A stretch of DNA of 64,000 bases from Amoebidium appalachense. Its lineage: Eukaryota; Protista; Ichthyosporea. The notes beneath the pieces were generated by a model that saw only the letters and a program-made list of their open reading frames with translations, was not told the origin of the DNA and did no database searches. This document shows, piece by piece, positions 9,201 to 12,200 of this stretch; positions within the stretch are counted from its first letter, which is position 1; every line of letters begins with the position of its first letter. The DNA lies in the NCBI GenBank assembly GCA_963693365.1, contig CAVNZM010000002.1, positions 14,293,615 to 14,357,614 on the forward strand. Direction: 5' to 3'. Both the position numbers and the translations under genes were made by a program.

Positions 9201-12200
9201 GGACCTGACGGGCAGGGACCTCCACTACTACCTACGCCCCGAGTTTATTGAGAGCACGTACATGCTCTACCAAGCTACAAAAAGGTAACACGGTGATCTC
9301 TCTCTCTCTCCCCCCCCCCCCCCCCCCCCCCCCCCCCCCCCCCCACACACACACACACACCCCTCTTCCCTCCGTGAATAGGTCGAAACTCGGGTACTGT
9401 GGATGACGTGGGCCCCCCTGAGGATGGGCTCTGCTTATTATGCATACTCTTTATGTATGGCTTGCATTCTGCATCGTGTTATCCGTTTGTTCTTGTGTAC
9501 TTCGTACTTTTTGACGCATTCAAACCCCCTCTTCCCTTCCCCCTCTCCTCCATCCGTCTTACCTTTTTGTTTTATCTTTCCATCTCTCCCTATTTTTTCT
9601 ATCTTGTCTTTCAATATCTCCCCGCTTTTCATTCCTTTTTTTCTTCTTTGTAAGGGGAAAGGGGGGAGGGGGGAGGGGGGAGTGAATACACAAAATAGAG
9701 TACCAGCAAAATCATCCTGGCAGTGTTGTTCTACATACATATATGTACTTTTGCATTGAAATGCACCCCCGTGACATTCTGATGTAACTCCTCCCACTCC
9801 CCTCAATATGGCTCCCATCAAATGTGCAATGGCCTCCATTTGCGTTCGTACACACACTCACTCTCTCTCGCTCACTTACTCACTTACTCACTTACGCGCT
9901 CACTCACTCAACTCAAGCGCACACACTCAATCGTACATGCAACTACCCACCCAGACTCACAGACATTAACCTAACTAATTTTCTCCGTGTTTCAGCCCCA
10001 TCTACCTCAAAGCAGGGAGGGATGTAGTTCGTGCCATCCAGAGCAAGGCACGTGTGCAGTGTGGATACACAGCGCTCAGCAATCTCCATGATGGCACAAA
10101 AGAGGACAGGTACGTGCCACAATCCTACTCTCCTTCTGCGTGAAGCTCCCGTTTTTCCCCTCTTTCTCCCCCCCCCCCCCCCCCCCCCCCCCCCCCCCCC
10201 CCCCCCCCCCCCCCCCACACACACACACACACACACACACACGCATGCACACACACACACCGTGGATGACTTGGGGCCATCTGAGGATGGGCTCTGCTTA
10301 CGATGCATACTCTTTATATGTGATTTGTATTCTGCATTAAGTTGTCTGTTATTAGAGTTTACTTCGTACTCTATAACACATTCTACCCTCCCCATCCCAT
10401 CTCTCCCCACTCCCCCCGAGACACACATACACTTATCCCTCTCTGGCCCCCTGGTGTTTCCTCGTTTCTTACACTGCACTTCCTAATGTGTCGATCTGTT
10501 CCCAAATACACGTTCTCGTTTGTTTACCAATCCTCTTTCTTCACCCTTTGGGTGATGAGCAAGAAAAACTGAAATATTCGTAATATGTTCATGCTTTGCT
10601 GATCTTCTAACTTTCACCACACAGGTTAGATTCGTTTTTCCTTGCCGAAACCATCAAATACCTCTATCTTTTGTTTGAAGACCCAAAAAACATTCGTCTG
10701 AACATGGATGATTATGTTTTCACCACCGAGGCACACCTTCTCCCCATCTCTGTGTCTCAACAACCAACCAAGAACAAGCGAACTCCATTTGATGCAACTC
10801 TTCAGACTTTGGGTATGAGATTCCTTCCCCCCCCCCCCCCCCTCCCCCCAACCCTTTCACCCTCCGTTCTCCCCTCCTGCCCCTCCCCCCCCCCCTCCAC
10901 CCCCTCCACCCCTCTCCTCTCCTGTCTCTCTCTCCTCCCCCCTGCCCCCCACCCCCCCTTCACCTCTCTCCCTCCCCATCCTTCCCTCCCTCCCTCCTTC
11001 CCTCGTTCCCTCACTTCCCCCCCCCCTCTCTCCCCTGTCTTTCTCACTCCCCCCTTCCTTCCCTCTATCTCTCCCTCTCCCCCCTCTCTCCCCCCTCCCC
11101 CAACCCCCCATCTGTTTCTCCTTACCACACACACACCGTGACCACCACCACTCGTCACGTGCATCATCTATCAGTGCTCCCCATTTGATTTTCTGCCGAC
11201 AGCCACTTCTCTCTTTTTTTTTCTCTCTCTCTGCGTGTTTATTCGTTCCCATTATCATTGTGACTGCATTAGTTTCCCTCCCTTCAAAGATTAGCACATA
11301 ATCCTAAGTTTCAACCCCATACTTATACGTTGTGCTTCAGGGGGACCCACATGGAATGCACACACGTGCCCCAACCACCAGACCTCCCGCTGGCTGTTTG
11401 TCCAGGATGCCCTCTTGGACATGTACATACCCCCAGCCCTCGACATATGCATTCCAATGCCAGAGCTGGAAAGGAGAAGGTTCCAACCCTGCTCCCCCCC
11501 CCCCCCCCCCTTTCCGTTCCCCCTCCTCTCTGTCCTCCCCCCCCCTCGTGCATCTGTAAGCACATACACATTTTTCGCTGCGCTGCATTAGTTTGCACGC
11601 ACATCTTCGCCGTTTTGCTCACCTTGCTTGCATAAGCAACCCTGCTCGTCTTTGATCAAGACGGGTTGACCCTCCCAAGTTCAGTTGATGCTGCTGTCTG
11701 AGTTTGAGTGTCGTATATACGCGGGCTAAGGGGTCGAAACTCAGACGCAATTGATGACTTGGGCCCTCCCTGAGGATGGGCTCTGCTTATGACACATATT
11801 GTGCACAAGGCTGATGTTGCATACTTGAATGTTTGCCTTTGCATGTGTCCTGCACCATGCTTCTCATCGTGTATGCGGCGTACTTCGTACTGTGTTCCGC
11901 ATTCACCCCCCCCCCCCCCCCCCCCCCCCCCCCCCCCCACACACACACACTTTCCCTTCCTTGCCCTCCGGCTACCCCTCTCCCCCTCCTCTTCTCTCTC
12001 ATCCCCCCTCCTCCCTTTCCCCCCTTCTCCTTCTTCCGTTTGCCTGCCAAAGGCCTCTCTCTCTGTTTCTCTCTCCTTCCCTCCCTCCGCCACTCCCTCC
12101 ATCTACCCATCCATCCTCTTGTATCCCCTCCCTTCTCTCCCCCCCCCCCCCCCCCCCCCACCCACCCACCGACCCACCCACCCCGGGCACGCCTCAACCC

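Follow-up and report, generated by a model that had tools for sequence, protein, structure and literature searches.

The window analysed here, a stretch of 64,000 nucleotides (nt) of the ichthyosporean Amoebidium appalachense (contig CAVNZM010000002.1), is eukaryotic and intron-rich and holds 12 pieces of one dispersed element family, every one on the + strand. The pieces have their 3' ends in common, most of them are 5'-truncated, and on one side or both most adjoin (C)n or (CA)n. The window copies define subfamily A (11637, 45224 and 51093), subfamily B (9374, 10260, 40086 and 48714) and subfamily C (27274 and 41938). Near its 3' end the element carries the core motifs of a hammerhead ribozyme in the order cleavage site, GAAA, CUGANGA (blocks S, G and C), which departs from the circular order of types I-III. 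A first-pass annotation had recognized in the copies at 11637-11785 and 27274-27419 an order belonging to none of these types; this was correct, and the order equals that of the published type SGC (Eckert et al. 2023, PMC10085705). That annotation also expected standard searches to miss such a non-circular hammerhead, and the 128 Rfam matches at E<=1 indeed include no hammerhead family, all 128 being low-complexity and below the gathering score. In the subfamily A copy, the motif is predicted to be built from the following parts:

11640..11642, + strand: 5' strand of helix P (CCC), predicted to pair with GGG at 11778-11780 after A9 and a bulged U
11644..11666, + strand: hairpin H, 9 base pairs (bp), set between helix P and G10.1; its loop is a palindrome, UUGAUCAA here and UUGGCCAA in copy C
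11668..11673, + strand: putative 5' strand of stem II, GACCC, with G10.1 at 11668; pairs with 11731-11735; 11673 is variable
11674..11687, + strand: 5' strands of the joining helix (11674-11680 with 11757-11763) and of the connector helix (11681-11687 with 11748-11754)
11696..11708, + strand: block S, with the stem III 5' strand, the GUU triplet (predicted cut 3' of 11704) and the stem I 5' strand (GGAG in the family, UGAG in this copy)
11712..11721, + strand: 10-nt palindrome in the linker from S to G, CGUAUAUACG in A, UCGUUAACGA in B, CGCGCG in C
11730..11746, + strand: block G, with the stem II 3' strand, G12-A13-A14-A15.1 (11736-11739) and the stem III 3' strand
11766..11780, + strand: block C, with the stem I 3' strand, C3-U4-G5-A6-G7-G8-A9 (11770-11776), the bulged U and the helix P 3' strand

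The short blocks reported as common to the two copies are present in both; one of them, GUCGAAR, holds GAAA in copy A and hides a G at position 15.1 in the copy at 27274. CUGANGA is found at 11770-11776, 27404-27410 and 9418-9424, with no variant at 3% or above in subfamily A and one at 0.5-3% in subfamily B, and for the GAAA core of subfamily A no variant is listed at 3% or above. The N-U-H triplet is GUU in all three subfamilies, placing the predicted cuts 3' of 11704 in copy A and of 27339 in copy C. The stem III pairings and GUU triplets described for the two copies are confirmed: stem III is GUCUGAG/CUCAGAC in A (11696-11702/11740-11746), GUAUGGG/CCCAUGC in C, and ACAGUAUCUGAG/CUCGGGUACUGU in B (12 pairs). 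Stem I is GGG/CCC in C and in B (3 pairs) and GGAG/CUCC in the A family, so that it is even stronger than had been claimed. The additional pair comes from position 11705 (N1.1), which is U in the window copy and G in nearly all depth of the family (1,306,307/1,307,368 in run X1 and 271,032/271,461 in run X3, and also in X9 and X15); the sole complete A ribozyme copy of the window thus has a stem I mismatch that is absent from its family.

Stems I and III covary across the three subfamilies. For subfamily B, of which the window holds the 3' half only, the cleavage-site strand was predicted beforehand as CCCGAG, U-H and a G-rich stretch, and the contigs gave UCUGAG, UU and GGG: triplet and flanks were as expected, and the 2 differing letters make G-U wobbles instead of pairs with C. 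This 5' half of B was read from the loose ends of contigs (consensus agreement 0.6-1.0) and not from one molecule, which lessens its weight. A 7-bp helix, absent from the first-pass annotation, connects stems I and II at their outer ends; it reads CCCAAGU/ACUUGGG in A and CCCAUGU/ACGUGGG in B, with one double change.

The pairing partner of stem II

The first-pass annotation had formed stem II from GGGCUCU, the local strand that follows CUGANGA. In the register given, this helix has 2 contiguous pairs followed by a G.G clash in 4/4 copies tested; moreover, GGGCUCU never changes, so its pairing with the strand on the GAAA side is no covariation, and the covariation that had been announced holds for stems I and III and not for stem II in this form. 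The copy at 45225, which had served as a further example of stem II, is 5'-truncated, lacks the cleavage-site strand and forms 4 pairs in a shifted register only.

A strand that does vary together with the GAAA side lies directly 3' of the 5' hairpin, at the same place in A, B and C. The resulting helix would be GACCC/GGGUC (A), GACUC/GAGUC (C) and GACCUA/UAGGUC (B), Watson-Crick throughout; pairs 4 and 5 show double changes. This strand, and not GGGCUCU, is probably the partner of stem II. In that case the chain would be opened between A9 and G10.1, the RNA would be more than a simple permutation of three blocks, and the 5' hairpin, which the first-pass annotation had left out of its fold, would likely belong to the junction. 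We therefore favour, with fair confidence, a core-opened hammerhead fold in which helix P and hairpin H break the backbone between A9 and G10.1. Helix P is invariant in A and C, with 3 pairs and no covariation in the window. On the upstream-strand reading, the analogy with other Penelope hammerheads suggests that the bulge known there between 9 and 10.1 has become a helix plus a hairpin.

The Naiad consensus sequences in the supplement of Craig et al. 2021 (PMC8557442) bear on this point; they were covered by a core-motif search whose displayed matches were read by eye, which is not a full survey. A four-strand layout with hairpin H and helix P is seen at the 3' ends of six animal lineages, with stem II being GGCCCA/UGGGCC in Naiad_Bfor, GGCUCC/GGAGCC in Naiad_Amil/Aacu/Anas (one mismatch in Aacu), GGGGA/UCCCC in Naiad-2_Movir, GGCCCC/GGGGCC in Naiad_Plae, GACGCC/GGCGUC in Naiad_EuTe and GACACC/GGUGUC in Naiad_Obim/Ovul. 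In all six, the 5' strand of stem II stands directly 3' of the hairpin and helix P is present, and the helix equivalent to P varies among these published Naiads. None of the Chlamys matches displayed by the same search had this layout.

Among the rival explanations, the one that survives best is an ordinary type-SGC ribozyme, in which GGCUCU after a two-base bulge (UG) would be the 5' strand of stem II and the upstream GAC strand would represent an off state masking block G. When the local strand is shifted by one base, with a 2-nt bulge after A9, it gives 6 contiguous pairs in A and in C, and 4 in B and in the 45224 copy; only 3, 5, 2 and 3 of these, respectively, are Watson-Crick, G-U makes up half of the pairs in both A and B, and one side of the helix is invariant, while the upstream strand follows every change with Watson-Crick pairs. 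The energies of the local helix (-5.4 kcal/mol in A, -6.3 in C) are near those of the upstream helix (-8.7 and -5.0) and do not decide between them. The 16-nt block that contains the local strand is unchanged across the subfamilies. Insertions of 1-2 bases beside CUGANGA are known (PMC10085705), Penelope hammerheads keep one base between 9 and 10.1 (PMC4209133, PMC6765202), and SGC-order motifs with a short local stem II lie behind related reverse transcriptases (L007, L010 and L078); against this, in the six Naiad lineages of the same layout no in-register pairing of C11.1 with the strand after A9 is possible, so that this strand cannot give G10.1-C11.1. Considering that covariation favours the upstream strand, we regard this alternative as unlikely.

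A second, slightly less probable alternative is that the fold derives from a hammerhead that has lost cleavage and is retained as a dimerisation or reverse transcriptase-binding structure at the 3' end of the element. It would account for G15.1 in copy C, for U at position 17, for a weak stem I of 3-4 bp and for the fact that no copy begins at the cut. A different Penelope element could insert in vitro without hammerhead cleavage, and none of its RNA reads ended at the cleavage site (PMC11167929). On the contrary, CUGANGA, GAAA and NUH are exact in A, B and the Naiad examples while the stems turn over, a pattern expected from selection on catalysis, and self-cleavage of the motif appears likely from its sequence. 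Chance pairings in a G/C-rich repeat, over-read with a flexible descriptor, are very improbable: the descriptors were relaxed or composed after the data were seen and helix P has 3 pairs only, but the pass rate among shuffles is about 1 in 1,000 when the core is kept fixed, what had been predicted for subfamily B was largely borne out, and the layout recurs in unrelated published elements.

The full descriptor, composed after seeing these sequences, matches the window (both strands) at 2 places, A and C, and with the core motifs fixed in place it is passed by 17/20,000 shuffles of copy A and 20/20,000 of copy C. A strict descriptor of the six possible orders gave 1 match in the window (copy C) and 0 in 90 related loci, the metagenomic relatives of the reverse transcriptase; it was relaxed twice after the flanks had been inspected. 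In its relaxed form, 9/31 CUGANGA sites in 3' flanks fit SGC, 7 of them from one family, compared to 0/79 in open reading frames, 1/79 on the minus strand and 1/3,100 in shuffles. Of the 90 loci, 33 have at least 600 nt of 3' flank, and 15/33 hold CUGANGA there.

Several results weigh against the core-opened fold or its activity, besides the composite nature of the B 5' half. Taken on one sequence alone, the upstream stem II helix is not significant, as 14-20% of shuffles do as well, and the full, split-core descriptor found 0 matches in the 90 related loci (294,794 bases). The proposed fold does not account for the invariant CUCUG 3' of helix P. The overall variability of family A is low (14 variable positions listed in 316), so that an invariant core says little; T11767>C occurs in 22% of X1 depth with no partner change listed, perhaps owing to B contigs aligned to A. 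G12-A13-A14-A15.1 is intact in A and B, while copy C, a single copy read, has G at A15.1 and for this reason is probably inactive. U at position 17, found in all three subfamilies, usually cleaves more slowly than C. Finally, 0 truncated copies in the window start at the predicted cut.

Probable host retroelement, other copies and neighbouring genes

The element is a very high-copy repeat inserting at (C)n/(CA)n: subfamily A is represented by 10,087 contigs in run X1 and 6,452 in X3, and subfamily B by 5,401 contigs in X1. In subfamilies A and B, contigs contain joints at which a 3' end leads back into a further copy, as in partial tandems. The copies in the window, apart from the B copy at 48714, are as follows:

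11545..11905, + strand: subfamily A copy, the 5'-truncated 3' end of the element, flanked by two poly(C) tracts
27274..27419, + strand: subfamily C copy, with helices as in A but other letters; GAAG at 27369-27372 (G15.1)
9374..9525, + strand: subfamily B copy, 5'-truncated, blocks G and C only
10260..10388, + strand: B-like copy, 5'-truncated, block C only
40086..40194, + strand: subfamily B copy, 5'-truncated, starting at CUGANGA after poly(C)
45224..45460, + strand: A-like copy, 5'-truncated and internally duplicated, blocks G and C
51093..51262, + strand: subfamily A copy, 5'-truncated, starting at C11.1-GAAA after poly(C)
41938..42008, + strand: 3' tip of subfamily C, ending in poly(C)

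Directly 3' of the 45224 copy and an A tract, at 45500-45510, stands a telomere-like TAACCCTAA, the only one in the window. At the window edge (63961-63980), CUGACGA followed by UGGGCU and GAAA resembles block C of the element, with its context cut off.

Two pieces of a reverse transcriptase (RT), which the first-pass annotation did not mention (nor G15.1 of copy C), are found upstream of copy C:

24396..24839, + strand: Penelope-like RT fragment, core; 55% identical to the related protein P0003, E 1e-43
26418..26672, + strand: Penelope-like RT fragment, thumb; 56% identical to P0003; frame ends at 26876

The thumb piece continues the core piece across an inserted element (24838-26416), which has 25-bp terminal inverted repeats, TA on both sides and a 185-residue minus-strand frame (25472-26029) with no convincing Pfam match; it is probably a DNA transposon remnant. 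The window RT is 5'-truncated, and an N-terminal GIY-YIG domain and the CPC and DKA motifs are seen only in its closest relative, the 55% identical P0003, which on reading by eye has no CCHH. A quick tree of 118 RT cores, with group labels self-assigned by sequence motif and without the reference proteins of PMC8557442, places the window fragment as sister to P0003 (support 98), outside a Naiad-like clade (99). Because the RT clade, the 5' truncation and the (C)n/(CA)n targets fit the description in PMC8557442, the host repeat is probably a Chlamys-type Penelope-like retroelement. The RT and copy C share a strand at a distance of 400 nt; between them runs a C/T-rich tract (about 27020-27148), so they may be two insertions. 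No RT lies near copies A or B within the window, and the viral contigs searched gave no relative.

The subfamily A copy at 11545..11905 sits sense in the last intron of a GH47 (EDEM3-like) mannosidase gene, which spans 215-12829 of the window with at least 16 exons and matches a EukProt protein exon by exon. The copies at 9374, 10260 and 11637 are all sense and in introns of this gene. For the GH47 exon searched, the best named relatives are animal proteins of about 55-70% identity, a likeness that hints at a protist akin to animals. The RT and copy C lie inside another gene (22191-31689), whose hydrophobic exons probably span the membrane and which matches RGS weakly (E 3e-4, below the cut-off); it is perhaps a receptor-RGS fusion. 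At 23233-24300, about 580 bp are tandemly duplicated around microsatellites (copies near 23302 and 23879).

Proposed cleavage between copies and comparison with known systems

In the proposed mechanism, the strand after A9 would leave the core via the 3-bp helix P, hairpin H would come next, and a separate strand would re-enter as G10.1. Joining helix, connector and stem III would stack into a rod of about 24 bp in A, with CUGANGA at its base, together with the 3' strand of stem I and the 5' strand of stem II, and with the GUU site and GAAA at its top. Since a long distance separates these two ends, cleavage probably happens between copies, the base of one acting on the top of another, either as tandem pseudo-long terminal repeats (pseudo-LTRs) in one transcript or as two RNAs joined by their palindromic loops. 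The rod geometry, these loops (the self-complementary top-loop sequence differs in each subfamily) and the contig joints to a second copy favour two-copy cleavage, towards which we lean moderately when it is set against a sharply bent monomer. In Naiad_Plae and Naiad_EuTe, 0-2 nt separate stem II from the rod, which by rough helix geometry would be too short for a monomer. Of the first-pass proposal of a pseudoknotted or a dimer/trans-acting ribozyme, the second part thus probably stands. Minimum-energy folds did not show the pseudoknotted fold. Cofolding favoured the homodimer by about 10 kcal/mol and was not used as evidence, as any long hairpin does so. By analogy with other Penelope hammerheads, for which dimer cleavage has been proposed (PMC4209133, PMC6765202), the role could be to cut tandem or read-through transcripts to unit-length RNA for reverse transcription. 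A part in defining the ends of the element is disfavoured by the absence of truncated window copies that begin at the cut and by the in vitro result for the other Penelope element (PMC11167929).

Candidate non-circular motifs are widespread among related elements, but not universal. Read by eye in file S5 of PMC8557442, Naiad-1, -2 and -3_Nbra, Naiad_Hpol, Naiad_Smim and one part-13 element, from nematode and spider, show a clean type CSG with three stems and a long joining helix, and the element ends there; Naiad-1_Dst shows the SGC order. Among the 90 metagenomic RT relatives, the SGC order is seen in the L007 family, in L010 and twice in L078, with a short local stem II, and most of the other loci have short flanks or no CUGANGA.

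The L007 motif (L007:3790-3895) has relatives in L004, L008, L009, L012, L013, L015, L038, L052, L064, L067, L076 and L080. Like L078:4570-4680, this family has its motif behind Chlamys-like RTs, with A facing A at 10.1/11.1, a local stem II of 1-2 pairs and an S-G linker that contains a palindromic hairpin; its covariation is weak (2 double changes, with 20/500 shuffles as high). The motif of L010:1455-1560 has an 8-bp stem I and GACAA instead of GAAA, and occurs twice in a partial tandem.

From the whole we propose, tentatively and at slightly less than an even chance, that a family of non-circular hammerheads lies hidden in Naiad/Chlamys elements of hosts ranging from protists to animals; one form of it would be four-stranded and obligately two-copy, each cut being made by the base of one rod in the top of its partner. 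The window would contribute to this an opened-core form in a Chlamys-like element, with three covarying subfamilies. If true, there would be a natural, obligate trans-acting hammerhead sensing tandem insertion, and the reported lack of ribozymes in the Naiad/Chlamys clade would be removed. For non-circular hammerheads this would be the first home in a genome, and a first role. Engineered switches could also profit from a core into which a helix can be grafted, and from the two-copy design.

Compared with type SGC (HRIMA-1 and the SGC variants of PMC10085705), the order of cleavage site, GAAA and CUGANGA and the core are alike, as is the helix between the outer ends of stems I and II, which in both cases is tied to the far end of stem III and poses the same puzzle. 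The systems differ in block C (stem I-CUGANGA-stem II), which in type SGC is continuous and assumed to be uninterruptible beyond 1-2 nt, whereas here stem II likely begins upstream and two helices are inserted. The S-G linker is about 3 nt in type SGC and 21-22 nt with a palindrome here. SGC RNAs come from metatranscriptomes, none from genomes of known organisms, and have been shown to cleave; the Amoebidium motif belongs to a genomic retroelement, and its cleavage is predicted from sequence. On the best reading, it is therefore likely a hammerhead-like motif with the SGC strand order that lacks the continuous block C by which the type is defined. Such an opened core would break the rule that CUGANGA and stem II form one block, and would be a topology beyond the six proposed by Eckert et al., who reported only a few CSG sequences, from soil DNA. 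Additional helices in variants are mentioned in PMC13725137 with no detail, and the portion of PMC10162972 covered has no such variant. Our literature search, with most subscription papers and the Eckert alignments outside its scope, found no report of a permuted hammerhead in Naiad or Chlamys or of a helix inserted between A9 and G10.1.

The likeness to Chlamys and Naiad elements lies in the RT motifs, the 5' truncation and the (C)n/(CA)n targets. Using classical-order descriptors, Craig et al. 2021 reported no canonical hammerhead in Naiads and most Chlamys, with the exception of two Chlamys subclades; they tagged Naiads as 'HHR_core' (10) and 'HHR_half_core' (8), labels left open there which the proposed family would explain. 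With the Penelope-like hammerheads (Cervera and de la Pena 2014, PMC4209133; PMC6765202), the Amoebidium motif shares the position at a pseudo-LTR end, palindromic loops, expected dimers and extra sequence between 9 and 10.1, a single base in their case. Those ribozymes are of circular type I, with a minimal stem III that is swapped in the dimer, whereas the motif described here has a long stem III and a non-circular order.

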